64,000 nucleotides of DNA from Marsupella aquatica (lineage: Eukaryota; Plantae; Marchantiophyta), in NCBI GenBank assembly GCA_973895155.1, contig OZ316894.1, positions 14,872,699 to 14,936,698 of the forward strand. The letters are read 5' to 3'. Shown here piece by piece: positions 3,487 to 58,161 of this stretch; the stretch's first letter is position 1; each line of letters starts with the position of its first letter. The position numbers and the translations under genes are program-made. Under the pieces are notes generated by a model. It was not told the origin of the DNA. It did no database searches and saw nothing but the letters and a program-made list of their open reading frames with translations.

Positions 3487-3498
3487 GGTCCCAATCCA

Positions 3499-7657: not shown

Positions 7658-7730
7658 GAATGTGCCTCTTGGGGCAGGAAGTACTGATTGCTCTTTGGTG
7701 ATAGTGTTTTTTATGCAATTTTGAATTGAA

Positions 7731-17035: not shown

Positions 17036-17242
17036 TTAAGACCGTTGGGTTTGAAACCGACGGTGACATAAACCACTCATACATTTTGAGTACTTGTTAT
17101 AAACGACTTCATGCTCAATACGACTAGTTGTCTAAAGCGACTGACATTAGTGCACTCAAACCATTGAGTTGTAAATTGTCCGTTATCACTCTGAAACAAG
17201 TGAATTATAGGTAGTGATAAAATCCCGATTTCCTTCTAATGG

Positions 17243-18766: not shown

Positions 18767-21700
18767 ATGGGGGAAGAGGGTGATGACATGGAGACAGACA
18801 TGGGGCTTGGAGAGTGGGGTGAAGAGGAAAGATTGGATATGGATGGAGACCCAGATGCAGGGGCCTCACAGAAAAATGCACCTGTGCAGGATGCACAGGG
18901 CCCTCATCAAGTCCCAGGTAGGTGGGCAGCTAGAGAGAAATCACATAATCCATATATACCCTAGAAGGAGCCAGAGTTATTGGCAAGGGACGCCTGATAA
19001 TTATGATGATGACTATGATGGAGCAGAAGATGGATGGGATGAATATGAACACCCAGAGCGTGGTAGAGACGGGTACAGAGGGCAATGGAAAGGTGAGGAG
19101 GATGATTGGACAAGTAAGTGCCTTGTGCTAGTGATTTTGTGATGGTAGTGGAGATTTAGCTCAATATGGACTTATCTGATGTGTAGCTAGGGCAAAGAGT
19201 TTATCTTACAGGTCCATGAGTGTGGCATGTACCTGTTGGTATGCAGACTCTGATTGGGACAATCACAAAAACAACAAAGGCCATCCACGTTCAGATAGGC
19301 GGCAATCATATTGGCGGGAGAAACGGCCCTAATTCATCAAGACAAAGCAATAGGACAGGTGGTCCAGAACCATCTATGCGCCAAGGGAGAGGTAACTTGG
19401 TCATTGCAGAATTGCTCTGAAGTCCAGTGTATATTTGGCAGCAGGATTTATGATTCATACTTACCTAATGTAAGTGACTGTAAATGGATCCTGTAAATGT
19501 GCAGGGACTCCAGGGAGGTTTGGACAATGCAATCCAGGCCGTGGGGGGAGATCAGGCCGTGGAGGGACCCCAGGCCGTGGGGGGACACCAGGCCGTGGAG
19601 GGACACCTAGTAGCGCTTCAGGGAGTACCAAGGCAGGAGACAGTAACAAATTTGGTAAAGTAGAAGTGAATTCCAAAGGTTGGATAACTCCCACATGTGA
19701 TGGTAAGAACCGTTGGCATTCTGACCTAAGAGGAGAAGTATTGCGTTGGTTAGATTTGAGCATTACAGAGTTTAGGAGTCAGAACAAAGCTGATTGGGCT
19801 GCTATCTGCAAGGACATTCTTGAACGGTGGGACTATGGTGGTAATGATGGTAAGGGCCCAGTTGAAGATTGCATATCAGATTATGCAATGAGGATTTTGA
19901 AACAAGAGAGGCATAGGTTGAAAAGGATGTGGATAGACAATGGTTCTAACTGGAGAAGGCCACCACCCCCATCATTGGAACTGGATCAATGGACACGGTT
20001 AATCAAAGGGTTCATGTCGGAGGCTGGACAGAGCAAGAGTGAACTGATGTCAAATGCTCGAGGCAAAGTGAAACACCTTTCACAGGCTGGGAGAGGAAGT
20101 TATGCTCCAGTGAAAGAACAATTGGTAAGGCAATGACATGCCTGATAGTAAGCCTCAAACTTATCATCTTGCTACCATTATTACATTTTCATTGACAATC
20201 AACACTTGGTTTCATTCATATGTATGTTGATGTGGACTGTAGAAGAAATTGACAGGTGAAGAACCATCAGCACAAGAAGTGAGAGAGGAATTCATGAAAC
20301 AAAGGAGTGAGGTGACAAGTGTGACTTCCAAACAGGTGATTATGTTGTAATTCTGTATGTTCTGTAACTATTTGGCCTTGAGCATCAGAAAGAAATGTAG
20401 TAGGAAGTAAGCAACCAGTTCTTGGGGACAGTTATCTGAGATATGTAAGCTGTGTTATGACAGGGAACTGTTACAACTCTCACAGAGATGTGTGAACGGT
20501 TGAAGTCATTAGAGTGTGGACTCCCTCGAGTGGAAAGTAAATTGGCTGATCGTTTGGATATTGTGGAGGCATCTGTAGCGAACCTTCTTGCATCAGTGGA
20601 ATCTAATTTCAAGCTTGTGATTGAAAAATTGGGTGGTTCCCAACCAAACAATGAGGACAACATTGTACAAAGTGTGCCCTTGTTAACAAAAAAGGGAATT
20701 GGCAAATCTGACACAGGTATGGAAATGACACCGGCCCATTGTTCATTGTGTCCTATGTTCAAATGTTAGAATGAATTGAGTGAATGGTTTGAATGCAGGA
20801 AGAGTGGAGGCAGAGAAGGACCCTGTAATCAGTAAGCAGAAGGGCAAGAAGGTTGCTGAGACAGGTAACCTGCTATGATCCAGTACATTACATTTGAAAA
20901 GTGCATGGAGTTTTGTGAAGCTTAAGCCGGTTGGAGGTAATCTTTTATGTAAGAACTGGTTGGATGAACTGGGATCTGAAGTGACATCATGATTGATGTA
21001 TCAGGTGATTCAAAGAGCAATAATGAAGAAGATGTGCCCAGTGCCTCAGTGACCATAGCCAAGGAGGTATCAGGTAAGCTGATGCTTTAAATTCCTCTAT
21101 ACGAATGTTGAGCAACAATTCAGTGGTTAATAGATTCAACCTGAATATTGTGGTGTGTTTATTGATCAACAGAAGCAGACATGGAGCATATGGCAATGGC
21201 AAAGAAGGGGAAGAAGGCTGTTCATAATGGTAAGGAGATAGTGACAACTTTGTGGTTGGTGACATGTACATTTAGCACATGTGATGAGTGATTGACTTAT
21301 GTTGGACATGACATTGAATTGTAGTTGATGCAGAGTTGACAGACTCTCAACCAAGTGGGAGTAGGGTGAAGTGACGTCGAAACTTGGGAGCAACATTGGA
21401 TGCAAGTAAGATTGTAGATGCTTCAATTGAAGCAAGTACAATGTTGGCAGATACTGAGATGATGTCGCAGGGAAATCCTGCTACACAATCAGAAGTGTCA
21501 AATATGGATGCAGATTCTTTGAAGAAGAGTGTAGCCAATTCTCGATCACCAGCACAAAACACTCGTGCCAAAGTCATGACTCGCAACCAAGGTATGAATA
21601 ATGTCATGTATAAGCCACCCAGGAAAGCCAAGAAAAACAGCCAGGGTAAGGTGGAGGTGATAGCCACAGCAGAGCCAGTCCATAATCTTCTATCATGGGA

Positions 21701-21929
21701 GGATGACTCGCAGGTATGTGTGGGTATAGGCATTTTGCGACCGGATCATGCAAAATTCCATGGCAAAGTGGTCCCGGATGACCATGTAGTAGTGTTGTTG
21801 ACTACAGTGATTGGATCTGATTGTAATTTGCCATTTCCGAATAGAGACGATGATCCACCTCAGGAAATAATTGCAGATGCAATAGGATCTCTTGTGCTCT
21901 GGCCATCAGAGTGTGTTAGTCTGCAGTGA
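18767..21929 (+). CDS. CACTA-2 second (TnpA/Ptta-like) multi-exon gene; exon structure partly resolved
   Basis: PPPSLELDQWTRLI..SELMSNARGKV..GRGSY exon. Last exon FHGKVVP..VVV..LPFP..AIGSLVLWP. 18-bp (PGRGGT)x4 repeat at ~19535-19605. Confidence 0.65.
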
Positions 21930-22755: not shown

Positions 22756-23020
22756 TGACAACCCTGACCCGAGAGCAAATAGCTTTGGAGAAACAAAAGG
22801 TTAATCCTTTTTTGCATTTGCGAGAGAAAATCTAACTCACCCCGACCCTTTTGGTCTATCCATACGCTCTAACAAAGCAATGCAAAATTTTGGAGAGTGA
22901 AAAGTACCATCAAAGACTTCCAAATTTCAGTTTCTTTCAACCATGTCGTCAACATGTTCGTAAAGAGCTTTCACTATCGACTCTGTAGCAAAATTCAAGA
23001 TCCCTGCTAGTTTTGCAAGA
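22756..23020 (-). pseudogene. Continuation of the Zn-finger DNA-transposon-like gene broken at 58162
   Basis: Removing 23021-58161 and one CAAGA gives continuous NHEANPL|AKLAGILNFATESIVKAL, later GELDFLSQMQKRINLLFLQSYLLSGQG. Confidence 0.7.
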
Positions 23021-23940
23021 TGTCACTCCAAAAGCTTTGTTCTTAATTGGATTTCAGCTTAAAGGCGGCCATAAACTCCATTAATATTAAGGTTCGGGCA
23101 AGGAGGGACGTGCATACAGTACCGTATTCCACGAACTTGACACTAACTGTGCCAAATCCTATTGTTCCCGTATCATACGTATTGTTTGTGTTCCGCCGCC
23201 GAATTGTACCTCAAGTCGATAGCTAGATCAACCTAGGGTTAAGGACTTCTAAGCCTTTGTGTTGTTCGCCTCCGATCTGGATCTGATAATGCGGGCAGCT
23301 AACTTGGGCCCAAAACCACTATCTGCAGCCTACACCCCGTGCACGGCTCGTATAGCACATCTGGCCCAACATTCTCTATCCGCATACAAGATGTACAATT
23401 GTCTTAGCATTCACAACATACACACTTGATTTACACGAAGGAAAAAGTGGGGGAAAAGACTTTACTTCAGAATCCATTATGCACATACACATGGTTGACT
23501 CAACTTCTTCTAAATACTCAGGCCAAAGGCAAAGAGGCATACACTACAACTTAACTTAGCCCGGCTCCGCGCTCACCCAACGAGCTCAGTTGTACCCTCA
23601 ATCCTTGGAACTTCTATTCAAGAAGGTTGGGACTCCCTGCACATCCTGTAGATCCTCGGTTTTGAACCTAAAATCCCCCCCTTTGCATCTATCGGGGGTG
23701 CACTAAATACTAACTAAGAGCCGTGACCAGGAGTGGTCACGTGCTTGAGTTCTAACCTATGCTAGTCCTATCTAAACGACAATACGCTAAAATGGTTTGT
23801 CATTTATCCTAAGATACTACACTAAAAGGGTTGTCGGCGCCGCTCTAACTAGTTCCGATGCTCGTCAGTAGTGTCCTACTCCTACGGCTAAACCTACGCT
23901 ACTCCAAACCATCAGCGTTGCTTAATGTCTGGCTTGCTTA

Positions 23941-24175
23941 TTACATCCGCCCGAGTGAGACTTGGATCGGCCGTCCCGTTGCCTCCTCAGCCGGTCGACG
24001 TCTTGCTTGAGGATTTGGACCTGGCTGTTCCATGAGAGAATCATTTTCTCTCTTTACCGCGTCCGTCTCCTCTACGGCTTCCTGGTACCCCTCTTCCAAT
24101 TGCTGACCATCGCTTGTCAGCTTGGCCACCAGTTGGTCTTGTTTAGTGGCTTCTTGTTGAAGCCGTGTGCCGGAT
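23941..24175 (-). pseudogene. C-terminal coiled-coil remnant of the LTR-encoded ORF in element B
   Basis: KQDQLVAKLTSDGQQLEEGYQEAVEETDAVKRENDSL versus KQDQLAAKLTSDTQQLEEACQEAVEETDAARRENESL at ~28190-28305. Confidence 0.85.
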
Positions 24176-25644
24176 GCCAAATTAAGTAGTAGTTGTTTAA
24201 CTAGAGTTAAAAATGATGTAACTACAGTTAGAAGTAACCATGGTTAGCAATAAATTAGGGTTAGGAGAACAAAGAGATGAATAGTAAGTGGTAGGGGGCC
24301 GAGATGATTTAGTATGGGTTGCCTAACCGAGTTAGGAAAAGACAAGTTAGGTTAGAATTTATTAGGTTAACAATAGTAGTTTAAATAAAAGTGACCGTAA
24401 ATAAAAAAGACAATCGACTTAGCAGAATTAGATAAAAGTTTCAGAATAGAGTTAGAGCTAGGAATTTAGCAAGTAGTTAGTTTTAGGTTCAAGGAGCTCA
24501 CTAGAAAAAACTCAAGTAAAACGGAGGTCCGGGCACACTGCTGGAGATTTATGAAATCGGGATCCCATTATAAGTATACTCAAATGGGATACCATAGGAG
24601 TAATGGAATACAATGAAAGAATGCTATGAGGGTTAGTGAGAAAGGCCAGGTGTCACCACCTAAGCCCTTTCCTTGAACTTTGTTTTCTTTTATTACTATA
24701 ACCACGAAAGACCCCGTGGCAGGGGGATATAGCCCACAACACCAAAAAAACCAGAAACAGCCACGCCCAATATGAAGGACAACCAGTGACGCAGATTGTG
24801 TTTGCCCCAAATCAATAGTAGGGGCCAGCAGCAAGCCAAGCATATCATGCACTCCCAGAATTCAGGGGCCAATATCTATCAAGGCAAGCTAACCAGCTAT
24901 ACACAGCTCTCCTGTACCCGAGCCCTCCAAGGGCCAATACATAGCAAGGCAAACTAACCAGCTATGCACTACACACAAATGCCCGAGCCATCGATCAGCC
25001 AAAAACCAAGGCGACAATATACTTTGTCCCTGAGATCCAAAAAGACCTCAGCCAGACGTGATCCAAACCTGACGACTACGCAACCACACCACTGTCTCCT
25101 GATTAATAAGCTCTTTAACACGCATCATTCTTGTGCGCCGCCTGCCCAGGGGCAAGCTCAAGCCCACCGCAGTAACATGATCGGCTGCCTCCGATAAACC
25201 ACCTAAGCCCTTTCATAAGGACAAGATTTCAAAAGAAAACTATGTAGCAGTGATGGGGAAACAACAAAATTCCAGCAGGATGGCAGCCAGGTGCAATTAA
25301 GCAGAATCAACTCCTTCCATAAAGGTGTGACGCCGCCGGTACGCGCGTTAGGTGGGTCTTAGGCCGCTATTATTAGCATAACGACAGTATTTAGGTAATC
25401 ATTAGGGGTAGGACATCATTAGGCAATAAGGGGGACTTCAGGTTTGGGCTGACGGCGGGTCGCTATTCGCACACCCGGGTTACGAGCGTGGAAGGGCCCC
25501 TCCCTCGGGTCCGTATAACGAACTTAAGGAAGCGGCCACTGACGCACGCTGACTCAGACCGGCGGAGTGGCCGGTACACCACAAGCGTGAGCGGTTCAGC
25601 CTATGGGCGTCGAGGAGACGTCGGGGATCGACAAGCCCTCAAAG

Positions 25645-25652
25645 TATAAAAG
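25645..25652 (+). promoter_or_regulatory. Candidate TATA box of element A
   Basis: TATAAAAG followed by a pyrimidine-rich leader, ~108 bp before ATG 25753. Confidence 0.55.
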
Positions 25653-25752
25653 GGGAGCCAACCCTTTGTAGTGCACCAGTCCATCAGTCCGCGCGCCAGC
25701 TTTGACCCCAGCTCTCTCGTTCTCTCTAGGTCGCCACTACTATCTCCTCTGA

Positions 25753-28349
25753 ATGTCGCACACGATCCTCTCCAGCTCGGCCATTCGATTATGGACGCAG
25801 TTCCTATCTACCGGAAGGCACTTGGCCGATTCATTGAAACACGCCAACCCGCGCCGATACGAAATCGAACGCGAATACGAGAGAGCCATCCGCCTAGCAG
25901 GACGACACCACTACGTCCTTAACTTTGACTACCCGTCTCAGAGCGAGCTTTACCGACCAGCAGAGGTATCTGGGTACTTCTTCAACGGAGACAAATATAT
26001 CGGATTCTGGGAAGCATTGCTTCGGCTTCCGGACGGGTCTTCAATATCCTGGGTACAATCGACCTGCAGCGACATCACTTCGACCACATCCCTGCCCGGG
26101 TTCGGGCTGTCATTAACGGCGAGTCCAGTACCAACCGTTTGACAAGGGCGTCCGCACTCGCTTCGGAGAACTTCTACCAGCACCTGCAGAGCTTCATGGG
26201 AACTCGGCCATCAACCAACATGACCAACTCAGCCGTACCCGTACCCGTACCCGTGCCCATGCAACCCCAGCCTCAACCTCAGGCTCAGCTTCAGCTTCAG
26301 CCTCAGCCGCAGCCTAGCCAAACCCCACCACCTATCACCCAGCCAGCACAGGTACGCTCCGTCATCAACGCTGTGGATCTTAGCGATGACGACGAGGCTA
26401 CCCCACCCTTGACCAGGCGGCCCAGAGGAACAAGCGCTCGGGGGGCCGACACTATATCGTCCCCACCCCCTGCTCTGACCCCAGGAGCGGCCCCAACAGA
26501 CAACATGGTGACCGTGGCCGCCCCGGGCCCGTTACCAACGGCAGTGGCACTCCCCAGGCCCGATCGGGAGGATGGGGAAGTATCACCTTCCCCGAGTCAG
26601 TCACGGGGAAAGAAGAGGAAGGAATCTGCCACTGCATCCGGGTTACCGTTGGCCACGGTAGCCGTAACCAAGGTGACGATGCACCGCATGGGGGAAAACG
26701 TTCACAGCAACATCCTCCATCCCAAGCATGCAGTGTACCTGAAGACTCAGGGATTTGAGCACCTCACCTCTCTCCCCTGGAACACTTGCAGGTACTACGG
26801 GGAGGACATGACAGAATTCGTCAAGAATTATGATGACATACGTCAACAGACTCGGCTGCGGGGAAGGAATATGTCCCTCATAGAAGAACGGCTCAAGATG
26901 ATCTTCGGGTTACCCGAAGGTGACCATCGAGTCGAATCACGGGCTCCCGGGGGCAAGGGGGCCAAATACCAATCTTCAAGTTTTCCCTCAGAGGGAGCAG
27001 TAGACAACGGGTTCGTGATGAGGACCTGCCTCATGCCCGAGATAGCTGAGCGGCTGGAGTTCCAAAGGTACACTCTCCACATGATGGAACCCCGGGGGGA
27101 GATCTCCGCCGCCCAGGTTATCCAGGTCGAGAACTATCGACCTAGGAAATGGGCGTCGTACTTCGCTAAGAAATTCCATGAAGAGATGGAGCGGCGAAGG
27201 AAGACGCTGTACATTGGCGGGAAGGCTTATTTTGCTAGCCACATCAAAATCATTCTTGAATGGTACGCCCGGTTTGATCGACGAACCCTTCCCCGCATCA
27301 ACGTTACAAAGCTGGTCCCAGCTAGGTGGGTTTTTCCGGCATTGGAGAGACGGCCCCAACCCGAGGCCCGAAGTCCAGCGGACACGCCAGCTTCACCCAC
27401 CCCACCTCCACAAATAGCTGTAATCGTAACCGAGGAGGTGCCGGAGAGGTCGGTTGTCGCAACCGTTGATGCGACCCAACTAGCCGGGCTAAGTACAGAA
27501 GTTGGTACGGCAGAGGTCTTACCCAAACCCGGGTCTCCCAAGGACCCACCGGTGGCAATTCCAGAGAACCGGACATTGCTGCAGGAGGACACTCCAGCCC
27601 CTTCCAACGTTATGTCCCCAGGGCTGGCCGTCACTGCCCCGGCCCCCGCGCGTGTTGACGTCTGCCCGTGCCCAAATCCGGACAGGCACAACTTGGACCA
27701 CCCGAAACTCTTTGTACAGGGTACATTTCTTAACGGGCTTTTGGGAGATTTCTCTCATCAAATTGCCCGGGATACCGGGGAGTTCATGGCCCGGAAGGTA
27801 GCCTGTTTCTTCAATCAGGAGTTGGTTGCCGCCGTAAAGGCAGGTCGGGCCTAGTCGGAGGCCCTTCAGAGGATAGAGCGGTACCGGGTGGAGTCCGTGT
27901 ACCTAAAGAACGAAGTGGCGGCTCAAGAGGCTGAGCTTCTGCAACTACGACCCAAGGTTGCAGCCGCCGATGAGTTGTTAGCAAAGGCGCACGCTCTTAC
28001 CGCCCTAGCCAAACAGGCCAAAGCTGGGAACGAGGCCGAGATTACACGACTCCGGAACCAGATTGACAGTTTGAAGAAACAAGCTGTCACCTGGCAGAAA
28101 GACCTGGAGGAGGCCGAGGAGCGAGCCCAGCGGGACACGGTGGAGATAGCCACGCTGCAGGCCGAGAAGGCGCGGCTCCAAACCGAGGCCGAGAAGCAGG
28201 ACCAGCTGGCGGCTAAACTGACGAGCGACACCCAGCAGCTGGAGGAGGCATGTCAGGAGGCAGTAGAGGAGACGGACGCGGCGAGGCGAGAGAACGAATC
28301 TCTGCTGGACCAGGTCCAGCTCCTCAAAGCGGACAATGACAGGCTTTGA
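25753..28349 (+). pseudogene. ~860-codon retroelement accessory protein (P/Q-rich linker, conserved central domain, C-terminal coiled coil); one frameshift and one in-frame TAG (27852)
   Basis: ORFs 25753-26142, 26139-27854 and 27888-28349 (last two in the same frame). Central domain resembles the gypsy extra ORF at 46891-47595. Confidence 0.75.
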
Positions 28350-30818
28350 AGGCAGCGGGATGGCCGTTCCCATTCGGGCGGCTCTGGCAAGCGTGTCAGG
28401 CATTAGCGGCGGAGTAGGAATAGATTAGGATTAGGATTAGGATTGGCTTAGTCAGGCTCTTGGGACAGGCACCTGCCTTAGGGACAGCAGCGCTGCCCTG
28501 CTGTCCAGCCTGCGTAGATTAGGATCTTCTAATAAGACACAGCCGTTTTCCGGCCTGACTGTCAGCTTAGTTAGGACCTTAGTCAGCGAATCTTTGGCGA
28601 GAGGACACCCCGTCCCTCGGCTCTTAGTATTTAGTGCACCCCTCGGTAGAGGCAGGGGGGGTTTTAGTTTCAGAGTCGGACATCCGCGGGATATGTGGGG
28701 AGTCCCGACCTCTGGGAATGACAGAGTACCAAGGGGAGGGGGTAGGACTAAGCTCGTCGGGCGAGTGCGGAGCCGGGCTCCATTGTAGTGTGCACCCTCG
28801 GCCTTGAACCTGTTCATTCCAGGGCTGTCGGGTCAACTAAGTGTACGCATATGTTCCCTTTGTAGTAAAATCCTTTCCCATCATTTTCCTTCGTGTAAAT
28901 CGAGATTGTATGCATGTGTGCGCATATGTGTGTGGGTTTCTCGTATATGGGTGGCAGCGCCAGGCCGAACGCACTACCCGAGACGTGCATAGGGTGCAGC
29001 CTGCGGGTAAGTGGTTGCGAGCACGGGTTGAGGACCTGTATCATCGAATCCGGATCGAAGGCGGACAGCACGAAGGCTTAGAAGCCCTTAAGCCGGGGTC
29101 GATCCTGCTATCGACTAAGGTACGTTTCGGCGGCGGAACACAAACCATACCTAGGAGGTGTCCGTATTTGGCAGTATGCGCACTTAGCGCTAGTTTACGA
29201 GAATAAGGTGCATTACGTGCTTCCCTTCCTGCCCGAACCCTCAGATTTACGAGGGATGTGCCCGTCTAAGCTGAAGTCTGAGTTAAGGCCGAAGCCTACG
29301 ACGTGACAAAAGGCAATTAGAGTTGACTCATGAAATCCGGAGAGCACACACAAGGAGCTTGATTTCAGGCAAGGAGATAAGGAGATGGCCAGGTGAGGAG
29401 TGGGTGGATGGAGATTCAATGTTGCCATTCAATTGAGCCTCGTTGCTGCAGTGCTGCCATTTGCAATTGAATTGAATGGCTGATTACTCTACCAAAGAGC
29501 TTTTGCTGTTGGGATTAGTGACAAGCTTCAAAGTGCTGGAGATGAGCGTAGTACTGAGCATGTATTGAATAGAGCTTGCTGCTAACTAGGTGTTGCGTTG
29601 ACAAAAGAAGAGCTTGATCTTGCTACTCGATGCTGAGAGCTTGGTGCCACTCAGGAGCTCGCTACTACCAAGTGCTGCTACGATGTTACCGAAGAGGCTC
29701 AATGTTCAATTTAAGTTTGAAGCGCCAAAGGAGTTCGTGTTTAATTGAGTTTGTTGCTATGAGTTGGCTGATCAAAGCTGAGAGCTTGGAGTTTTACTGC
29801 TGTGGTAGTAAGCAGCTTTGGACTGTTGAAGATGAGCTCTGTGCTGTTGATTGTGTATTCAATGGAGCTTGCTGTTGAGTGATGTTCACTAAGTAGTTGT
29901 TCACTAGGGGAGGCGCTGCTGGCTATGGGGATTGTTGAGGGGCTGAAATCCTGGCTATGGAGTTTGCTGCTATGGGGAGGGAGTTCCTCGTCGCTTCAAT
30001 CGTGCTCCTGGATGTGGAGCTTGCAACTATGAAGCAGCTTGCGACCGCTTACTGAAGCTCAGGAAGGAAAAGATAAAAACACAAGTAGGGCTTAGGAAAA
30101 ACTTACCTGGTGAGTTTGGTGGCGGCGAGTTTTGAACCCGAGACCTGTTGGTTGCTAGGGATTTCAGTTGGGATACCAATAGAGCTTTTTGAGCTGTTCA
30201 TTTGAATAGCTCACAGCAACTCTAATTAAACTAAAACAACATCCTGCAATTGGGTTTGAGGGACTTTTGGGAGCCGGTTCGAGGCCAGTAGGGGACCAGG
30301 GAGACCAGAGGAGGGCCCAGCAGGGGTTCCTCGACTTCATGAAGGCCCGAGAGACAGTTTTTTATCCCAATAGGATATGCTAAGGAGTTTTCATGAAGGC
30401 TGGAAAACCACTATATATTTGTATGACTATTATGAAGCCCAACACTTGATGGGTGCTGGTATACGATGAGTTGTTGCTAGATAGCTCGGCCTTGCACTTG
30501 CACAGTAGCCATAGAATAACTACTAATGCCAACATTCTAGTTGGAACCAACTCAAGCGGTAGTTGTCCTAGTTGGGTAAGTTTACAACTGTGTAAAAGCT
30601 GACCTGTATTTCTGTGGTAACCCGAGCCTCAACGGTAAAACCCAAGACTCAGTGGTAACCCGGAACTCAGTGATGTATTAATCCTCAGGTGTAGACCGAG
30701 CTTGAAGTTGTTACTATGAGAAATATTGTGTTCCAGTCAATTTACAACTCGGTTAGTTGTAAGAGTTACCAAGGGGGTACCCTAGTTTCTCGTCTCACTG
30801 AGAGGTGGCCGTTGTTCA

Positions 30819-31018
30819 TCCGATAGCACTTAAAACGTCTTTCTTACTATTCCTTGTTCAAAAAGCAAAAAAATGACAAGTTTCTTACATAAACCTATAT
30901 CGAGCCATTCCACAACAAGACCTGAACAACGGCTCGATATAGGTTTATGTAAGAAACTTGTCATTTTTTTGCTTTTTGAACAAGGAATAGTAAGAAAGAC
31001 ATTTTAAGTGCTATCGGA
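30819..31018. repeat. Near-perfect inverted repeat: 88-bp arms (1 mismatch), 24-nt loop
   Basis: 30819-30906 is the reverse complement of 30931-31018. Confidence 0.95.
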
Positions 31019-33315
31019 GTAACTAGGTTTTAGGAACTTAAGTAGGTAGAATAGGAAAGATAGTGGAATGGAAGGTTACTGAGTTGTAAGCAAGTGACAA
31101 GGGATAAGAAAGGTCTTTATGATGGGGCATACAACGTTCCGTCCTTATTTAGACTAGGCGACTATTCCGAGCCGGAGAAACAACCCCACACTTGAAGTCT
31201 TAGTTTTGGTTCAGATTTTTTCCATAGATGCTAGGAGGTCCCTAGAGCACCCCTAAAAAGTTAGATGTCAAGTGGGGTCTCAACCTAGGGTTTCCTTGTG
31301 TTTTGGTGCGACTTAAATTAACAAAATAGCGGGTCCCGGGAAAAATAGCTGATGAGTAAATTTAGGAGTTCCAAGTTTGGAAGTGGGTTAGATATGGTCC
31401 ACTCTATCCCTGGGAACTTGTGGTAGAATCTGGGTATCTTTGGTTACTTTTTGGGAGCATCTCAAAGGTGAAAAGAATTTTGGAAAATATAATAATTAAC
31501 CCACTTTACCTAATTTTAGAAAATCGGTGATAAGGTTTTGTCTAGATATTAGTAAACCAGGACATAGGCCTATGTCCATAGAATATGTGTATATACTAAG
31601 AAGTAATTTTGGACTCATGTGTGATTTTTGGGGGCGGTCCAAAATGGCCTGGAAATACTGTTTCCCAACAAAAAGTATCAACCGCGTCGGCGGCGACCAC
31701 GACTTAAGCACGAGGCCAGGGCGACTCAAGCACGAGGTCAAGAACACCATAAGGGTCAATACATGAGATGCTTGCTTCGAATTGGGATCAAGAGGCAGCT
31801 ACGAAATTGAATTGAGCTGCTATAGCTTCAGGCATGGGATGCTGATCAGAATTGGCTAGCTGCCTCGATGCTGCTGATTGGAATAGAGCTGCTTGCTATG
31901 GAGAAATAGGCTACTGCTGATCAAGAGATAGCTGGCTGGCTATGAGCTATGGTGGGCTATGAAATTGAAGGGCTGGCAGCTGATCAGACTTATTGCTGCA
32001 CCAGAATTAGAAGGGCTAGCTTCAAGCACGAGATGTTGAGTGTTGGCTGATTAGTAAGTATGCTGCAAGCTCAATAGTGTTGCTGCTCTGCTAGCTACGA
32101 AGTTGAGAAGGGTGAGCTATGGCCGGCTGCTGGAGAATAGAGCTAGGCTGCTAGCAAATTGATTGAATGTAGTAGCAAACGGACCAGCTGCAAGGAAGGA
32201 ATTAAGAGGGCTAGCTGCGAATTGGTGGGCTATGGCTGCTGCAAAATTCTGCTGCAATTTTGAATCACTTGCAAGGCTGGATGGTTATGGAGGTGGACTG
32301 AGAAGGGTGCTGCAAACCTGGTTGAGCTGGCTCGCCCGGGCTGAACCCAAGGGACAAGACACTCGCCCGGCACTTGGGCTTCAGCACTTAGCTCCCTCCC
32401 TTGACCTGCTGCCATTCGAATCTAACAGAGAATGATGCACTTTCAGATTGAATTCAAGAGAGAGGAAAATGGCTGCAAAAATTGATGTCCTTATCAAATT
32501 CTTCATAAGAAACGTGAGTATAATGAGAGTACTCTCCCCTGGTGACACCTGGAATCTCCATAAGGGGCGTGTAAGGTAAGTGTAATCGGGTCGCCGCTTA
32601 CACCCACTTTACACCAAAAACAGGCCTTGGGAGAATGGGCATAACTTTGGCTAGGGGTATCCGTTGGGGCCCAAATTTTTTTGTGCTGAGTTAGGGGAAG
32701 GTAAGGCGCCCCTTGGTGAAGGTGGAAACCCAGAAAAAGAATCACTCAAACATATTTTTAGCCGAGGCCATGAGGGGGTCCCGATAGCTTGCAAACCAAA
32801 GTTGGCATAGGGGAATGACTACCAAATTTAGGGGCTGACCTTTCTTGCATCCATACTACTTTAGTTAGGCTATAGGGAAGGGTACTTACCTTTTTTCAAA
32901 GGTGTAAGGCCATCATGTTAAGAAAAGTAAGTATAGGGGGTAGTTTACTTAGGATAGTAAAGGGGTTACAAGTAAAATAGGGGCATCTTTGACTAGGCAC
33001 AACTTGAGACTCATTCACTCTTTTTTCGAGCTTTCAAGTGGTCCCAAGCTGGTGAGGAGGACCATAAGTGGGAGCAGGTTTAGAGGTCAAAGCATGCAAG
33101 TCATGTGTGGCATATTCCAGGGCTTGGAAGGAGTCCAAACAATATGTTGTAGGGTGGGCTACCAACTATAGAGTTGGACTTTGTGTGTTAGGAGGACTTG
33201 GGGGATGAGTAGTTGGACCCCAAGTCAAGCTTGGTGTGGTGTGGAAGGATAATAGTATATAAGGAGTAAGTTTTCATTTGTTAGGGACCGGGAGTCTCAT
33301 CTCTTAAGTGGAATC

Positions 33316-34638
33316 TGTGGTATGGGTGTCCCTGCAATTTTTTCTGGAAACTTGTTTATTTTTAGCATATCTCAAGATTTACTTACACTTTAGACGCCTC
33401 CGGCCAACATTTACTTGTTCTGGACACTTATAGAAATATTTGACATCTCCGGCTTTCCTGACGATTCCTAGTGTACTTTGCCCGACGCTGTGACTAGCGT
33501 CCGTTTCTTTTACTCATGACGCTTTTGAGCAGCGCCCGACCGCCACCAAGACTCTATGAGGATTTCACACGACGCTGTGAGCAGCGTCCACCCTAGTATT
33601 GATGCTGTGAGCAGCGTCCGTTGATTTTACTTAAGACGCTTTCAGCAGCGTCCGCTTCTACTCACAACGCTTCTAGCAGCGTCCGCTCGTCAATTAGACT
33701 TAGTTTTTGAAGTAGATTACTAGTAGAGTAGTATTTTGCCACCCTGGAAGTACTCATGCTGTACTTCTCCCTTGTTTAGTTTTAAGCTTGGAAAGGCACG
33801 ACTGTTCTTGCCTCCATTTTTGGATTCCAGCACTTATAAGACAGAGTAGAGTGCTCATTTGAAGTAGAGAGAAATAGACTTAATACTGTATTCAGAATTG
33901 AGTCTTCTGAATAGTTTCCTCCTCCTTCCATTGTAACAAGGCATGCTGTGAGTGTTTTGTATGGAAGTAAAGCTGTATTGATTGAAGTTGAGATTGAATT
34001 TCAAGAGATTCCTGTGGTGATTGAATTCAGTTACAGATTTCTGAAACTCGTATTGAATTCACTACTAGGCTTGCTTGCAGAGTCAGGATTCGCTAGCCAA
34101 TTCAAGAATAGTTAATGATAAATGAGAAGTAAATTCTGATTCTCAGAGTAGTCAGTACCGTTGTTTTGATTCTGGAATATGGTTTAGAGTTTGACTGAAT
34201 TGCGCATCGCTAACATCAAACCATGTTGACAACATTTTAAATCATATCATTCATTTGCAACCAGAAAGCTTCTAGTTCATCAGATTGAGAATTCCATTAT
34301 CATTAACCTTTGTGTTTTGAAGCGTGAGATTGATGAATTATGAGACAGATTTCATGTCTACACTGAGCCCAAATCCTTTCTGAAGGAGTGGCAGTAGTAG
34401 CTTGTAGTCTCTAAATCCTTACTCATTTCTTCTTTGATTCATAAATCAGGAGTTCAGTTACTTGGTTGTTTGTTTATTTGATTTTTCGTTGAAAAGTGAA
34501 GTCAGCATAGAGCTCAGGGCTCTAAATCACTCAGAGTGATAAAAGTTATACAATTCATTCTGAAATATGTTCTTAAAGGGATCGAAACCCTGGTTTTAGG
34601 TGAGAAGAGTCACTTTTGATACTTAGCACTATACGACA
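33316..34638 (+). repeat. 5' LTR (1323 bp)
   Basis: TGTGGTATGG...CTATACGACA. Roughly 97% identical to the 3' LTR by manual count. Confidence 0.97.
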
Positions 34639-34644
34639 TCTTTT

Positions 34645-34662
34645 TGGCGCCGCTGCCGGGGA
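34645..34662 (+). other. Primer binding site complementary to the tRNA-Asp 3' end
   Basis: TGGCGCCGCTGCCGGGGA, 6 nt after the LTR. One mismatch to the Athila-type TGGCGCCGTTGCCGGGGA. Confidence 0.88.
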
Positions 34663-35856
34663 ACGAATTTAAGATTGAATTGACGTACAGGCAGTGTATG
34701 CCAGAAGGAGCTAGACGGGAGAGGAATTCACGTTCTACTATAATTGTGAAGGTGTGTCATCACTGCAGTTAAAAAGATGAAGAGCTTCCATTTCGAGGTG
34801 ATGCCGTACTCTATCCAAAGCGCCCCGGAAGCTCTCTTAAGAGTATTGGAAAAATTTGTGGTGCCAAACTTAAGAGAAGAAACCCCTCTCCCACCAGAAA
34901 AGGCCTCATAGAGAGGAGCTGTTGCTCGGCAAGTTGCTTTGGAGACAGTCAAAGACACCAAAGACACTTTGAGTGACAAGTGAAGTTATCATAACTTTGC
35001 TCGGGACGTATGATTTGTAAAATTGTCCAACCACCCTGGTTCGTGTGACCGATGCCACCTATCTGATCTTTGGGAACATTAAGAATTAGGAATTTGAGGA
35101 ATCGTTATGTTAATTCTTGGGTTCTGAGCCTGAGAGGGAGGAATGGCATACATTGGTTAACTATCACCTGGTGGGAAGATGAAAGTTTGCATTTAGTAAT
35201 ATTAAGGCTGAATGGTAGGATCACACAGGAGAGATATTTAGTCATTTCCATTCGGGAGTTAGCGGAAGGAATCATGCACCAGGAATTGCGTAGAAGATTA
35301 GGAAGGAGATAGACGCCTGATTGGCCTAGTGTAGCGTACCATGTGGTAAAGAAATTTCAGGGTGTAGGAAGTCGGAGATTATGGGGAACGCCCGGTTCCA
35401 GTAATCGCCACCGTAAGGATGAGATAAGGAAGGACGCTGCAAAGAGCGTCCAATGCAATTCGTCCCAGAAGACTCCGCAAGTCAGGACGCTTCCAGTAAC
35501 GTTCGATCCCAGTGGACGCTATGAGCAACGTCCGTCGGAATCTATGACGAACCAACGTGCGCGATGCTTCTGGTGTGCCTTTCCGCGTCTCAACCCGAGG
35601 GACGCACCAGGGAAAACGAGGTTTTAGAATCTCGGCTGGTCACTGAAGGGAAGTATTAGCTATGGGAACGGGATAGCAAGGGGGAGGAATCATGCCAGGG
35701 ATGTTGAACGATGCTACGGGAAGTCACTTTGAGGAAACAGGTTCATATCTCCCGGAGTGGGGTGATAACGTCGCACCGAAATAATGACTCCTTACATAAA
35801 GACTCCTGAGGAGCGGGTCGGGTGTCTCAAAATCACCCGTGCTTGGAGAATGAGGG

Positions 35857-38800
35857 ATGTCTGAGGGAGATCCACCGAATAAAAGAAAACCTACCAAGAC
35901 CTCCAGTAATTCGGATGCCGCAAAATCAGTAGTGACCCCTCAAACATTATTACCCGAATTCCAGTCACCAGGAGCACCTGCACCGGGTAGTGTGTGGAAA
36001 CAAGTGAGATCTATTCAAGAGGCAAGTGGCTCTGTGGAAAGGCCCACGTCGACCCGACCCCTGTTTGTAAATCTTCGTTCAGGTCCAAAACTTATTGGTT
36101 CTCAAAAGATCAAGCTCCGCCAGCAGACAGTACGTTCGGTGAACCAAATTGACTCTGGTGTGGATAGTGCCACTGAGAGGGCCTTATCTCATACTGAAGG
36201 AAGAAATTTGGGTTTGCCTGAGAACACAGTTGCAGAACCGCTGGCCCAAGATAATTCTGTCGATCTTTTACAATTGGATAATCCAGAACCACTGAGCGAA
36301 GCCGGGGGTTCGTCCTCTAGTGAGACAAGCAGCAGTTCTGGTAGCAGCAGCCAATCCGGCAGTTCAGGCTTGGGCAGCCCAAACCCATTTGCTACCCGAT
36401 CAGCTCTTCCTTTCGTTACCCTCCTAGCTCCAACCACGATGGCTCAAAATAATGTGAGGTACGACCGGTTCTTCGGTACTTCCAAGGAGGATGCAGAGGT
36501 GTATTTGAAAGAATTTGAAGCTGCAGCTGCATCCAATGGACAGAGTCAAGACGCTGAAAAAGCCAATCTGTTTGGTGGTCTAATGAAAAAGGGTGCTCAG
36601 AAATGGTATGACCGTTTCCCGGACAAGCAGGATTGGGGGAAATTGAAGGCTGCTTTCTTGGCCAAATATAAAGAAGAAGGAGCAGCTGCGCGTGCCTTTG
36701 CCCGAATCTCACATCTGCACATGAAGAAACATGGGTCTGTAAGGAAATATGCCGACAAATTATTGGATTTGGTAGATCAATATAATCCAGCTACATCGAA
36801 ATCTACTATCAAGGACTGGTTTATTAACGGTTTACCCTCCAGGATTGCTCGTTACGTGAGACGAGAAGGTGGCACCACTTTGGGAGAAGTACAAGAGGCA
36901 GCCCAGAAGTACGTGGACTCAGAAATTTCAGAGAGAAAACGAGTTAAGAAAGACCTGAAGAAAGACAAAAGAAAGAAGAAGAAAACATCCAGGTCTAAAT
37001 CTGACTCGGAGGCGGAATCAAGTGAAAGTAGCACTAGTGAGGAGGACGAGAGTACAAATTCGAGCACTAGTGATAGTTCAAGCTCAAGTTCCGACTCAGA
37101 ATCCGTTGCTCCTAAAAAGAAGAAATCCTCTGTAAAAGGGAATAATAAAGTTCCCAACCAGAAGAAGATGGATCGCATGATGGAAGAACTCTCTGGTCAA
37201 TTGTCCAAGTTGAATGTCAATATCGCCATGGTAAAACCAGTGCGAAGGTTGCCTGCTCCCATGAGAATGAACGTATGGTGCACCCGATGTAGTCAGCAGG
37301 GCCATTACCCGAACGAGTGCCCCACATTACGAACTCTGGTGAATTATGTAGATGGTCAAGAAGAGGCTGAGGAGTATGAGTACGATCCCGCGTATACCGT
37401 CCAAACAGCACCCCGTGGACAGTATTTCCCACCACCTCCTGCTTCCAGGCCGACTTGGGGACCACCTAAGCCCACTTTCAATAAACCAACATCAAGACCA
37501 CCCATGGGACCCCCGGGAGGATATCCACCACGAGGAATACCGCGTCAAAAAGGGGCTTGTTGGAATTGTGGCCAACCTGATCATTATTCACCCCAGTGCC
37601 CTTATCCCAAACAGGAGGTGGGGTATACACCTATCTGTGGAAACTGTGGAAAAGAAGGACACTTACCGGTGGAATGCCCAAATCCGGCTAAGCCTAGGCT
37701 GATGGTTCGATTTGCTCAAGAACCAGTTAAAGAAGCCAGTCGACCTGAAGCCAAGATTCGGATGGTTTATTCTGAAGAGATGGAGCAATGCAGCTTCATT
37801 CAACATATGGATGTAAATCGGGTGGAATTAAAGCCAGATTCACTTTTTCATCAACCAGTATTCGGGGTGGTGCCTGATGTCTTGGTAAGTCATTTAGTGA
37901 AACCGGAAGTAGTTGGTATGCCGAATGATCGAGTTCAGAATCAGGATAAAGTTCTGACTAATATTTACGCAACTACTCGTTCGAAGAAAAAGGAGACCAA
38001 GAAGCATGAGCATCAGAAGGTCGCGAAAGCTCCCAAGGATGAAGGGCGCAAGCCATGTGAGGAAGGCCTAGACAAAGAAGACGACCTTGCTTATGACCGA
38101 TATGATCCAAAATACTTCTTGCCCGACATCTCTTTGGAAGTGAAAGACCATCTGGAAGAGCTAGTTAAGGAGCAAGTGCAATCTCCTAACTCACCAGTAG
38201 TAGTCAAAGCTAAAGAACCACTGAAAAATCCAGGTTATGATATTGTTGAAGATGTCAAGAATCATCCTGCACATATCACCATTGGGGAATTATTACAGGA
38301 CAATCCCGTTTATAGGCGACAGCTGAGGAGCCTCCTTGCAGGAAAACGGAGGAAGAAGAAGTTACCTTCTGTGGATGTGCTACGAACAGAGTGGGAGGAC
38401 AAAGGACCGATGGAAATTAAGGTTCAAATCCAGGGGTGTGTCATTCAGAGAGTTCCTGTGGATGGAGGAGCCAGCGTTAATCTGATTACACAGTCAGCAA
38501 CATTTAATTTGGGTTTCACTAAGTTTGAGCCCACTCCCAAGATTTTGCGCATGGCGGATCAGTCTCGTGTGGTACCCATAGGAAAGCTGACCAAAGTAGA
38601 AACTTTGATTGCTGGTGTCCCTTTTCTGTTGGATTATGTGGTTATTAATCCGGAAATACCATCCAACTTTCCTATTTTGTTAGGCCGACCATGGTTGTAT
38701 AAGGCTCAAGTTCAGGTTAATTGGCAATCTCAAGAGCTTTCATTTGGGAAGCCTAAGGTGACTGTTAGTTGGGTTCCGGAACGACATTTTGGAGAAACAC

Positions 38801-41900: not shown

Positions 41901-41944
41901 CATACAAATCTTTCACCAAGATTTGAGATGCCATCCTAACCCCC

Positions 41945-44980: not shown

Positions 44981-44992
44981 GGTCCCAATCCA

Positions 44993-45766: not shown

Positions 45767-45828
45767 AAAGCTGAAACTGTTGTTAGAATGTACTCTTAGA
45801 CGACAAATAGAAATTGGGAGCAGTAGAG

Positions 45829-46231: not shown

Positions 46232-46890
46232 AGCATTAGACCATACAGTTACCATTCAGAACCAGCGTAAACTTGCTTATGATAAGAAGCTGCGCGTAGT
46301 GCAGTTAGATGTTGGTGATTTAGCATTAGTCTTTGATTCTCGTTCTATGCTATTTCTTGGGAAACTTCATACTCATTGGATTGGTCCTTACCGAGTTACA
46401 CACATCTGGGATAATGGTTCAGTTTCATTGACTACCTTAGATGGTCACCCACTTAACACTAGAATCAATGGGTTTAGGATTAAACGGTACTATGAGTCTT
46501 CCATTTAGAATTCTACCTGGGACAGGTTGCAGTTTAAGTGGAGGGCGGTAGTTGTACTTAGTTAGAATTAGTGACCCTCCCTAGTAAGTATTCGGAATTT
46601 TTTCAATTTTTTTTAGTTACTTTCAGTTTTTACATTGGACGCTGTGAGCAGCGTCCATTGTAACTCGACATTGGGGAAGCGTCCACTTAGTTTACAAAGG
46701 ACGCCATGCGCAGCGTCCGCTTTTGTATTAGTTCAGTTGCATGAGATGCTGTGAGCCGATGACTAGGCGTCTTGTATGACGGCGGATTGCGACAGCTCAA
46801 CGGGACGCTGAGGAGTAAGCAGTCGCGCTTTGATCTAGTTCACTATGGAACACGATTCTCACTGAGCCTACGGAGCTAACAAGTCACGCG

Positions 46891-49800
46891 ATGGCGGAGA
46901 CTGAGTTGACGACGCGACCAATACTCGCAGACATTCCATCGAATGCAGTGCATAGGCGGCAGTTGAAGACGGCTCTGGCAAAAATGGGCTTGAAGAAGCT
47001 GCTTCAACTTCCTTGGAAGATTTGCGAATTCAGCCTTATCGATCAAGGTGTCTGGGATGCTGAAGAAAGGATTGGTGTGCGCTCGCATCCCAGTGTTTGG
47101 ACTGAAGCGCTCATAGCGGAGGTCTATTCGACGCCGATGGAGGGCGAGGATTTATAGAAGGTTGACTGTGAGCCTCGGGTTTATGTAGAATCCTTCTTCG
47201 CTCCAGGATCTTTCAAGAGGCGGAATGGATGGCTAGCGGCGGACTGCTTAGATAATTCTCTGCAACGTCTATTTCAATTTCTGGCACCAATTTTCTACCC
47301 AAAAAGCCAGACGCGCATCACTCTTTTGTTCGCTGCAACGGTGATCTGTTCATTAGAACAGACGCAATCTATCAATTGGACGAAGGTTTTGCACCGAGTA
47401 ATTCATACTCAGGTCAAAAAAATTCATAGCAGGCTGAAAACGGGGAAAATAAGGTGTACCTACTTGGCCCCTTATTTAGCTCACATTTACCATAAGTATG
47501 ACTGTCTGCTTGCCTTGGAAAAAGATTTTTATCGCAACAATCAAAGAGCATCTACCGGTGAAGCAAATGATATGCCTGAAGTACGAGAAGTCTGAGCCAA
47601 TTCCACAGTGGTAGAGCTATGTGCAATACTCGACTGTGAGGAACCTGAACTGGTGGGTGAAGTTTGGAAATTGAAAGAGACAAGAGCATCAGCTGAAGGG
47701 AGTGACGATCCGATTCTTCACCAACCAAGAGAGGCTCAAGTTGCCGAAGATGTTCCTTCAGCAATGCCAACAGGGTTGGAGCATTCTATGTCACCTCGAC
47801 TCTCGCCTTCACCTTGTGCTGCCAAGCCTATTTATGATTTTGATCAGGATAATTCTGCTTCTCGGAAGAATGTTGAAGATGAGGTGAGGGTGGATGAAGA
47901 AGGCTTTTCAGGGGAACCTCTTCAACATTCTACTGCTGAGGACGAGTATGATAGATTTACTTCTACCCCTGTTTTGGTTCCCATAGAGGCAAATAGTGAT
48001 GCTTTGCAGGCTTTACAGGAATATGATTCATCCGACTCTCTTAGTTCTAGCCCAAGTATAGGTGAAATCCCTCTGGTCCAGGAGTCAGTAGAACCTTTGG
48101 CAATATTAAGCTCAGAGATTGTGAAGCTGGTTAAAGTTGATTCGGAGGATGCAATTGTAGATATAGACGAAGTAGGTGATCCAGTGACTTCTCCCCAATC
48201 TGTCGCAAGATCCCCTGCCTGGCCTACACCTAGTTCACTCATATCGATTCCTTTGGATATAACTAAAGAATTAGATGAGGCAATAGCCGAGATAGGAGCT
48301 CCTTCATTTCCACCTGTAAAATGGGTTTCTCCTGAAGATGAGTTGATTGAAGGAGGCTCTGCTGGTTTTCCGAGTCGCAATCAGGTATCTGGGAATAGGG
48401 GTATATCTGTACCCATATTGGTACCCGAGCACCCGTTTCGACAACCAGCTCAACACCAGTTTTGTTGGCTACAAACGAGGGTAAACACATTCGGGAGGAG
48501 TTTTCAGTGACGTATACTCGAAAACTTTGGAAACGGTTGCGCCATGCTATCAGTCGACAGACCTTTCCTGAAGCATCTTCCTAGGATTTTGAACAGGGAG
48601 AGGCACCTATCGGGACAGACGAGCTACCCCTTCCTGTACTTTTGGCAGATCGAACTAACCAGGAAGTCTCTTTACCTAGCGATAATTTTGAAGAAGAACT
48701 TCCTGTTTTAGTACCAATGCATCCCACTGCAGATCAACCAGCTGCTATTGCAAGAGAAGATTTTGAACCACTGGAGCCAGAACCTTCTGCTCCTTCGTCT
48801 CCTGTTACATTGCCAATTCGGCCAGTTAAGAAGTCAGTGATCCCTTCCGCTATGCCAGATGTAATTTTCCGTTGGATAGGAGCACCAAGTGACGGGGAAG
48901 AAGACGAAGACCCTCGCATTATCAGAGTACCTCCTCGACTTTGGCATACAGTGGATTTATCACCTCAAAATCCTATCCCTAACTTGGCTTCAATTCACAG
49001 GTGGGAGAAGAAACATTTTCGGGTAGCTTTTCGACATCTGGAGATGGAGAGCATTTTGCAGCAGCAGCAGATTTTGCCAATAACAACCCATCCGAGGATT
49101 CGTAGTTTGATTCGCACATATAAACCTGGAAAGGCGGTTCCTCCCATTGATAAGGACAGACGACATAAGTTTTCGGAGTTCAAAATTTGGTGTTGGGTGT
49201 ATATGCTTCGACGAGCTCAAGCTCCATTTCCACCCATTGTGCCGGAAATTCCATGGCCCTATCCATACTATGTTTGGGTTTGTCCTGATGGGTTTGCTAT
49301 TCCAATTAAATATGAGAAGGAGCTTGTTAAGCTAATGGAACAGTTGATTACAAAACAATGTATGCTACCGACTTCCCAAGGGTTCAAGTCGCTTAGGTGT
49401 TTAGCATTCCTACCTATTATTCCTTCTTATCCGGATGTGATTATTCAAGGTATTTTGTCTAGGACACATATTTGAAGGACACCATTTATGAGAGATATCA
49501 AACGGTGTTGTCATTTATATGTATATAAGCCGTTACTTTTGCAGCATCCTGCATTTGTTTCCTTCTTTCTCCTTCGAATTGATATTTATCTGCTCATGTG
49601 GAACATCAAAGCTACTATGGATTGTTGGAGTTCTTTACCCCGTGCTTTCCAACATTCCTTTGAAGGCAAGATCAAGCTGGGAGGACATGCTATTCAACAC
49701 TTTGTTATTGATCCAGGCTCTCGAATTAATTTCCTCTCCCATAGACTGTGCCAGCAATTTGTTCATCAAGAAGTACAGCCCATATCTGCTCATATATCAA

Positions 49801-49965: not shown

Positions 49966-50026
49966 TGAAGAACATGTCACTCGCTTCTGATTCAATTCGG
50001 TCATGTCTTGTGGGGACACGGCAAAA

Positions 50027-58027: not shown

Positions 58028-58161
58028 TGTTGTCTTATTCATGATTACTAACTACTTTAGTGTCGTTATGCTAATACTTACGGACTACTAAGTCCCTAGT
58101 GTGCGTGCTCAGCATGAATTAAGCCGGATTACTCATTATCAGCCGTGCTGGCGGTGTCACA

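Follow-up and report, generated by a model that had tools for sequence, protein, structure and literature searches.

A 4-kb TG..CA unit of the liverwort Marsupella aquatica that encloses an accessory gene with a predicted VANC/PMD fold: a likely solo long terminal repeat of a Ty3/gypsy family

The locus

The 64,000-nucleotide stretch of the Marsupella aquatica genome analyzed here (assembly GCA_973895155.1, contig OZ316894.1, positions 14,872,699 to 14,936,698 of the forward strand; hereinafter, the window) is built of plant transposable elements nested in one another, among them a full-length Ty3/gypsy element, young long interspersed nuclear elements (LINEs) and CACTA-type remnants (DUF4218). 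Within this nest lies unit A, a compact unit of 3983 bp with TG..CA ends, a 5-bp target-site duplication (TSD) and a single long, damaged open reading frame (ORF). Unit A is read here, with a probability of roughly 60%, as a solo long terminal repeat (LTR) of a high-copy Ty3/gypsy family, enclosing an accessory gene for a putative sequence-specific anti-silencing protein of the VANC/plant mobile domain (PMD) fold. Its features, all on the plus strand, are listed below; P0044 is an unbroken homolog of the ORF product.

25321..25325, plus: left TSD, AAAGG (sequence; a single 5-base stretch in empty-site contigs)
25326..29308, plus: unit A (3983 bp), probable solo LTR, TGTGAC..GTGACA (sequence, depth edges)
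25348..25423, plus: 5' same-strand TTAG/TTAGG cluster, candidate binding sites
25645..25650, plus: candidate promoter TATAAA, the sole one in unit A, with a pyrimidine-rich leader downstream of it
25753..26035, plus: first part of the ORF, from the ATG at 25753 to the frame break, with the N-terminal helical domain (P0044 residues 4-90, 26%, E 5e-7)
26036..27851, plus: ORF middle, with a Pro/Gln-rich linker, a basic RGKKRK stretch (about 26604-26624), the central domain and a second linker (P0044)
26673..27275, plus: central globular domain, predicted VANC21/PMD-like fold (AlphaFold2 model, Foldseek, VIA-align)
27855..28406, plus: C-terminal coiled coil and basic tail of the ORF (P0044 residues 725-884, E 7e-11; coiled-coil Pfam matches below the cut-off)
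28403..28667, plus: 3' same-strand TTAG cluster including a GGATTA tandem run, candidate binding sites
28780..28950, plus: T-rich stretch with five TGTA, echoed in element B (see below); candidate plant 3'-end processing region
29309..29313, plus: right TSD, AAAGG (sequence)

Termini, target site and copies of unit A

A bare combination of TG..CA ends with a 5-bp match is not beyond chance: the window contains 28 such pairs, compared to about 19.5 expected with loosely defined termini, and independent support for the TSD of unit A is therefore required. The boundaries are secured by the edges of contig depth, by the joints of empty sites and by the homologous ends of a second element, element B. 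The inverted match between the termini is imperfect (8/10 bases), and the AAAGG duplication spans exactly 5 bp and no longer. Contigs from four public sequencing runs, three of them deep, were placed on positions 24800-29800. In three of the four runs, empty sites of the surrounding repeat are represented by joints from 25322 to 29314 or 29320, and in all four, contig depth has sharp edges at both termini, the 3' edge being seen again in every run. The TG..CA termini and the perfect AAAGG duplication described in the first-pass annotation of the window are thus upheld by sequence, depth edges and empty sites, and the termini are reproducible, the same ends being found in element B.

A search of unit A for an internal direct repeat, a word resembling a primer-binding site (PBS), a junction of a polypurine tract (PPT) with TG, and gag-pol detected none of these; the start of the unit is not repeated internally, there is no long terminal inverted repeat, and there is no end-to-end similarity over more than 11 bp. 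Two terminal direct repeats with an internal PBS and PPT, the layout of TRIM, LARD and TR-GAG elements, are accordingly not found in unit A. Domain search detects no transposase domain in unit A, and the 5-bp TSD is not of Mu-like length; comparison of positions 22900-29400 with Rfam yields no matches up to E 1. The earlier observation that unit A lacks an internal LTR pair, PBS or gag-pol is confirmed by the sequence and by domain searches, and short LTR pairs around the ORF find no support in its sequence or depth. In the surroundings of unit A, TGTCAC at 24651 is a possible start of the host repeat that received the unit, although no matching end was found; the repeat flanking unit A also contains a near-perfect inverted repeat of 96 bp with an 18-bp spacer (30814-31023).

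In the three deep runs, the summed contig depth over the ORF exceeds that of the flanks by factors of 378, 474 and 117, a measure that does not equal copy number. Every bin of unit A is covered by contigs, and the deepest listed joint reaches 182. At the 3' end, the main-path contigs have a depth of 3,350-12,550 vs about 11-190 for the junction contigs, and the 11 rows of loose contig ends behind 29308-29313 represent several unrelated flanks, with two rows corresponding to one flank in two runs. These observations suggest at least hundreds of copies of unit A. The ratio of depth in the 3' noncoding part to that in the ORF is 0.58, 0.67, 1.77 and 0.67 in the four runs, and the corresponding 5' ratio is 0.80-0.87; hence the ends do not consistently exceed the ORF in depth, contrary to what would be expected of an LTR consisting of the ends only, although this is a weak test.

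Element B

Element B, which is on the minus strand, is represented in the window by two pieces.

23021..24177, minus: 3' part of element B, with the C-terminus of the ORF and 901 bp to the terminal CA; TSD CAAGA at 23016-23020
58050..58161, minus: 5' end of element B; TSD CAAGA at 58162-58166

The surviving parts comprise about 110 bp of the 5' end and about 1.16 kb of the 3' end, 35 kb apart. The last ~1 kb of B is 66% identical to unit A over 1029 columns, and the distance from the stop codon to the terminus is 901 bp in B and 902 bp in A, in agreement with the approximately 1 kb of 3' sequence originally reported to follow the ORF. The middle of B is absent from the window, and there is no pol on the B strand within the B span. 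The recognition of B as a relative with the same termini, its own TSD and a matching distance from the ORF end to the terminus stands, with the qualification that B is only a fragment: it is informative on the C-terminal part of the ORF and does not cover the first 750 codons. The 35 kb between the ends of B (23021-58161) contain insertions nested at least three layers deep, among them unit A, a member of B's wider family. An AT-rich repeat fragment (24178-24650) abuts the broken ORF of B.

The ORF: state, selection and homologs

The ORF of unit A, first described as an open frame of about 860 codons, spans about 885 codons from the ATG at 25753 to the terminal stop at 28404-28406, and is not open: it is interrupted by a frame break (near 26035) and by in-frame stops at 27852-27854 and 28347-28349, and its longest open piece comprises 641 codons stop-to-stop. 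This copy is a pseudogene that cannot yield a full-length protein. The lesions appear to have arisen by decay once the unit had inserted, given that contigs differing from unit A at the frame break account for 97%, 46%, 60% and 100% of the local depth in the four runs and that B is open at the position of the 28347 stop.

Across the 64 codons shared by A and B, the proportion of nonsynonymous differences (pN) is 0.134 and that of synonymous differences (pS) is 0.747, with the differences distributed over the codon positions as 10/10/32 (Fisher p 6e-14). The ORF family is thus under purifying selection, a pattern at variance with the neutral evolution that would have spoken against a functional gene.

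Among 1.84 billion representative proteins, the central 241 residues retrieve 42 at E<=0.001, one of which is a repeat artefact. Ten homologs were looked up: four are unnamed proteins of the liverwort Calypogeia fissa, five are found only in Logan, and one is unnamed with JGI members. A further search returned 17/17 homologs from C. fissa, with a query that was itself rich in C. fissa sequences. Among the homologs assigned to a named organism, this liverwort is the only source, and its sequences are deposited as unnamed protein products. Unbroken homologs of 906, 812, 809 and 787 amino acids share the layout of the unit A ORF, which includes a helical N-terminal domain, a disordered linker, the central domain, another linker, a coiled coil and a basic tail. 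The three pieces of the ORF align in order to the 906-residue P0044 (E 5e-7, 2e-69 and 7e-11), the middle piece at 34% over 473 columns, ending at the stop at 27852-27854. A word-index search with the frame of unit A identified no homolog, and one for long fused forms of 1587-4530 amino acids found none, but this method is insensitive, having missed P0003, which was found by the central-domain search. Several unbroken homologs, including P0005 and P0044, reside on Logan contigs of 3.6-4.4 kb, about the length of unit A. The proposal that the layout of unit A is a family trait is supported by the continuous depth, the purifying selection and the unbroken homologs, and is left without testimony from B on the first 750 codons.

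Predicted fold of the protein

Structure prediction, proposed in the first-pass annotation, was run on the central domain. The AlphaFold2 model (pLDDT 88.6, pTM 0.84) matches VANC21 in Foldseek (9lnj_A, probability 1.00, TM 0.52, E 2.5e-3), the next row having E 1.4 and no other match having a probability above 0.02. In VIA-align, the best match is 9lnk_A (Z 8.6, 214 residues aligned, root-mean-square deviation 4.1), followed by one at Z 2.3; among 48,161 chains, only VANC21 has Z>=5, and just one other chain exceeds Z 2. The matched VANC21 structure is DNA-bound, with its own target. VANC21 is the anti-silencing protein of the Arabidopsis element VANDAL21 and binds dense, same-orientation short motifs in the noncoding parts of its own element (PMC5735166). 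The Atlas leads for the protein, DUF1985 (0.86) and PMD (0.85), both below 0.9 and leads only, agree with the VANC21 match, which is isolated and extends over the domain, because VANC carries DUF1985, with a fold common to the PMDs of MAIN and MAIL (PMC13547354 and bioRxiv 2024.09.27.615353). The central domain is accordingly predicted to have the VANC/PMD fold.

Elsewhere in the protein, Pfam comparison of the ORF and its homologs gives coiled-coil-type matches only, all below the threshold, and a search of PDB sequences with the family profile likewise recovers only coiled-coil matches. In the viral fold library, the central domain has no clear match (best probability 0.38, TM 0.21). The N-terminal domain, modeled from the sequence of a homolog, is mostly helical in a model of low confidence (mean pLDDT 46.7; 50-70 over the domain); four-helix bundles are its only matches, and these are generic (best Z 6.2) and assign no fold.

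Promoter, TTAG clusters and 3' end

The TATA box initially noted in unit A is present as TATAAA at 25645, upstream of the ATG. Short TTAG motifs on the same strand flank the ORF: positions 25326-25752 contain 6 vs 2.0 expected (p 0.006), with TTAGG at 5 vs 0.7 and no reverse motif, and positions 28407-29308 contain 14 vs 5.7 expected (0/1000 shuffles). The 3' noncoding part of B contains 15 vs 7.2 expected (p 0.002), whereas the ORF of unit A, with 3 vs 6.1, is not enriched. TTAG was chosen after inspection of the sequence, which makes these p values optimistic. In a k-mer scan, no 6-8-mer of the noncoding parts exceeds the shuffle maxima. A 9-bp word present in both TTAG clusters and resembling the VANC21 motif was dismissed as being at chance level (E 3.7).

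The T-rich stretch at 28780-28950 may serve in 3'-end processing, judging by plant poly(A) signals. If transcription runs from the TATA box at 25645 to this stretch, the ORF would be part of an unusually long R region; if there is a second promoter further 3', the ORF would be part of U3. A splice acceptor-like sequence at 25720-25729 was discarded as a sign of env-style splicing, given that its AG is variable: the variants make up about half of the contig depth in each of the three deep runs, and the whole depth in the remaining run. The CpG observed/expected ratio is 0.86 in A and 0.81 in B vs 0.45-0.61 in the flanks and the neighboring element, and 0.12 in the LINE.

The neighboring Ty3/gypsy element and other features of the window

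The full-length Ty3/gypsy element (33304-51360, plus strand) encodes gag and pol between LTRs of about 1.3 kb (33304-34638 and 50028-51360) that are 96.4% alike. Its PBS-like word TGGCGCC at 34645, separated from the LTR by a 6-base spacer, is presumably of the tRNA-Asp type. Athila elements use tRNA-Asp (PMC2533021). Between pol and the 3' LTR are broken extra ORFs in the sense orientation (46834-49965), the first of which is of direct relevance.

46834..47595, plus: broken extra ORF with a distant copy of the central domain, outside unit A (profile, hhalign)

With unit A left out of the central-domain profile, this ORF scores 25 bits (E 2.8e-7), compared to 3.9 bits for the best of 500 shuffles; in the profile ranking across the six frames of the window it is second only to unit A, and hhalign agrees. 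Given this homolog in the slot between pol and the 3' LTR, the central domain is a Ty3/gypsy accessory domain in the Marsupella aquatica genome, placed once in the usual internal slot (the neighbor) and once between TG and CA (unit A). The second extra ORF of the neighbor (48585-49475) has no Pfam match.

A young LINE is inserted in the integrase region of this element. One LINE occurs in four copies that are 98-99.6% identical (360-5372, 8739-13804, 41628-46231 and 52521-55999, the last with an inverted 5' part), along with a diverged copy (55967-58027); it encodes an endonuclease-reverse transcriptase and an ORF1 of 279 codons and has a 181-bp tandem array in its 5' region. CACTA-type transposase remnants (DUF4218) with pieces of a probable accessory ORF, in two diverged copies, are located at 5626-7657, 17211-18589 and 19474-21929. 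A second, decayed Ty3 pol (62571-63998, plus strand) shares about 50-55% identity with that at 38938-41493.

Interpretation and alternatives

Of the first-pass view of unit A as an LTR-type coding unit, the coding part fares well: the evidence supports an ORF that is selected and that belongs to the TG..CA unit throughout the family. LTR status is the most likely reading of the unit, with a probability of about two in three. A self-contained expression cassette, as proposed there, stays a hypothesis, and this copy could in any case not yield the full-length protein. The VANC/PMD-like fold, the coiled coil and the copy of the domain in the neighboring element were not part of the first-pass view. 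The parent family probably belongs to the Athila/Tat side of Ty3/gypsy, as indicated by the extra ORF of the neighbor; the internal region of the parent element was not found. Judging from the homolog in the neighbor, an accessory ORF that normally resides between pol and the 3' LTR would have been taken inside the LTR boundaries; reverse transcription would then copy the gene into both LTRs in each round, and LTR-LTR recombination would delete gag-pol, leaving the promoter, the ORF and the 3' end between one TSD, which is the state of unit A. The protein would enter the nucleus, multimerize and bind the same-strand TTAG-type clusters around the ORF, and the LTRs of the family would be kept open. 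The full scenario, in which a Ty3 family of the liverwort lineage moved a complete VANC-like gene together with its promoter, poly(A) region and binding-site arrays into the LTR, solo LTRs stay behind as intact cassettes acting in trans on the family as a whole, and the VANC fold is retrotransposon-borne far outside the eudicots, is considerably more doubtful. In this scenario, the cassettes would be left by solo-LTR formation, which is the principal route by which hosts delete such elements.

Several observations weigh against an LTR that encodes an anti-silencer. The fold match is moderate (TM 0.52, root-mean-square deviation 4-5, 8-11% identity, E 2.5e-3), and its Z of 8.6 is close to the 7-8 that is typical of the best matches of models without a clear counterpart; the Pfam profiles of DUF1985 and PMD match neither the window frame nor 25 + 6 homologs. 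A common fold does not establish function, and PMD proteins include silencers (PMC5418596). The TTAG clusters may be general LTR-type promoter motifs, and another repeat, at 24251-24500, contains 13 sense-strand TTAG in 250 bp. A continuation resembling a tRNA PBS is found in 0/11 loose-end rows, with few rows listed and short contigs breaking there, and one row (4 contigs, agreement 0.92) may represent a shared non-PBS continuation. No contig spans unit A, and its colinearity elsewhere is assembled from short overlaps. Element B, as a fragment, could represent the outer ends of a longer element. Scans of viral and metagenome contigs for relatives of unit A confirmed no locus; in three collections, a 20-bp motif common to A and B occurs at 4, 1 and 2 loci, all seven by chance, with no further similarity.

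Part of this evidence can be accommodated by an LTR-less DNA element with short imperfect TG..CA ends that is cut and pasted by an integrase-like transposase and carries a VANC-like gene as VANDAL elements do. The lack of a PBS-type continuation, the absence of gag-pol from both A and B, and a sole structural match to a DNA-transposon protein all fit this possibility, which is nevertheless improbable: the terminal inverted match involves just 8/10 bases, the TSD is 5 bp vs about 9 bp for Mu-like elements, and the nearest homolog of the domain in the window belongs to a true LTR retrotransposon, whereas movement by a retro route would require, for strand transfer, a terminal redundancy that unit A lacks. 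Still less probable is a deletion derivative that joins the start of a 5' LTR to an internal extra ORF and a piece of a 3' LTR, in which case the ORF would not belong to the LTR. Downstream of the ORF there is no second copy of the 5' sequence (best match 11 bp, E 0.3), neither a depth gap nor a high-depth joint marks a private junction, and three of the four runs show no 3' excess, although the 1.77-fold excess in the remaining run points the other way, as do the normal place of the domain between pol and the 3' LTR and the location of TTAG clusters at the start of the unit and directly after the ORF. The purine run at 28731-28742, which might be taken for a remnant PPT, has no TG behind it, and B does not retain it as a purine run.

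Whatever the LTR status, the protein might be a DNA- or chromatin-binding accessory factor with another job, such as LTR transactivation via host factors, tethering of the integration complex or self-limitation of copy number, an option with a substantial if less than even chance. The fold is shared with MAIN/MAIL1, which act in silencing or against Polycomb (PMC5418596 and bioRxiv 2024.09.27.615353), PMC7264820 describes the functions of extra ORFs in plant LTR elements as unknown, and the additional N-terminal domain has no assigned fold. Conversely, VANC, the one characterized transposable element-encoded protein of this fold, is an anti-silencer with an oligomerizing coiled coil (PMC13547354) and binds oriented motif clusters like those in unit A; the high CpG observed/expected ratio of A and B also favors anti-silencing, although young age or GC content may explain it.

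Comparison with known systems

The extra ORFs described for plant LTR elements are internal, and most of them are located between pol and the 3' LTR (PMC7264820). Like unit A, the Ogre PMD (PF10536), Transposase_28 of Retand/Grande and ORF-1 of Athila represent selected accessory genes of LTR-type elements, and their products combine a globular PMD-like core with a coiled coil and basic stretches. PMD extra ORFs are present in 57% of Ogre elements, and plant non-chromovirus LTRs reach about 5 kb (PMC6317226); PMD-A clades are Gypsy-encoded in angiosperms (PMC5418596), and gene23 of Grande has its own promoter and a nuclear product (PMC7264820). In contrast to these extra ORFs, the protein of unit A has no Pfam match and belongs to a bryophyte-type family.

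The predicted central fold is shared with VANC21 and VANC6 (VANDAL, DUF1985) and with the PMD-C of MAIN/MAIL1. VANC also resembles unit A in possessing a coiled coil and oriented clusters of short motifs in the noncoding DNA of the element, but its identity to the unit A protein is 8-11%, and it is carried by DNA transposons and described as dicot-specific (PMC13547354). Unit A differs from the VANC carriers in its TG..CA ends, 5-bp TSD and extra N-terminal domain, and its binding motif and anti-silencing activity are putative.

Coding sequences inside LTR boundaries are familiar from MMTV sag, an ORF within the U3 of the 3' LTR, and from HIV nef. The sag gene, from a vertebrate retrovirus and with a host-immune function, has about 320 codons vs about 885 in unit A, and a further difference is that a candidate TATA box precedes the ATG within unit A itself. 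Tekay elements with ORF0 (Retrosat2, RIRE3, RIRE8) have LTRs of more than 3 kb with TGTCAC..GTGACA-type ends, abundant solo LTRs and an extra ORF, but ORF0 is upstream of gag-pol and separate from the LTR (PMC3485330), with no homology to the unit A ORF shown. TR-GAG, TRIM/Cassandra and LARD elements are, like unit A, small TG..CA units without pol, but all of them have two terminal repeats, a PBS and a PPT, none of which unit A has, and the ORF of unit A is not gag.

No plant element whose LTR contains a complete ORF came to light in the literature covered, although the supplementary tables of PMC6317226 may list LTR-overlapping extra ORFs; PMC12859917, PMC13468544, PMC11963269, PMC10787394 and PMC11728184 contributed nothing on an ORF inside an LTR. 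Accessory ORFs of the PMD fold are known, and what is likely new here is the match to the VANC21 fold and the location of a whole gene of this kind inside a likely LTR.

Implications

Solo LTRs are usually regarded as inert or cis-acting scars. If the interpretation proposed here is correct, an LTR-borne trans-acting chromatin protein would outlive the deletion of gag-pol, with the gene dose doubled per insertion, and the protein and its target sites would stay linked, such that their co-evolution could be easily studied across copies. Gene annotators will label such copies as host genes, as the unnamed protein products of C. fissa illustrate. A testable function would become available for the extra ORFs of plant Ty3 elements, which have long lacked an explanation, and the VANC-like fold, described as dicot-specific and MAIN-derived, would be placed in retrotransposons of early-diverging land plants.

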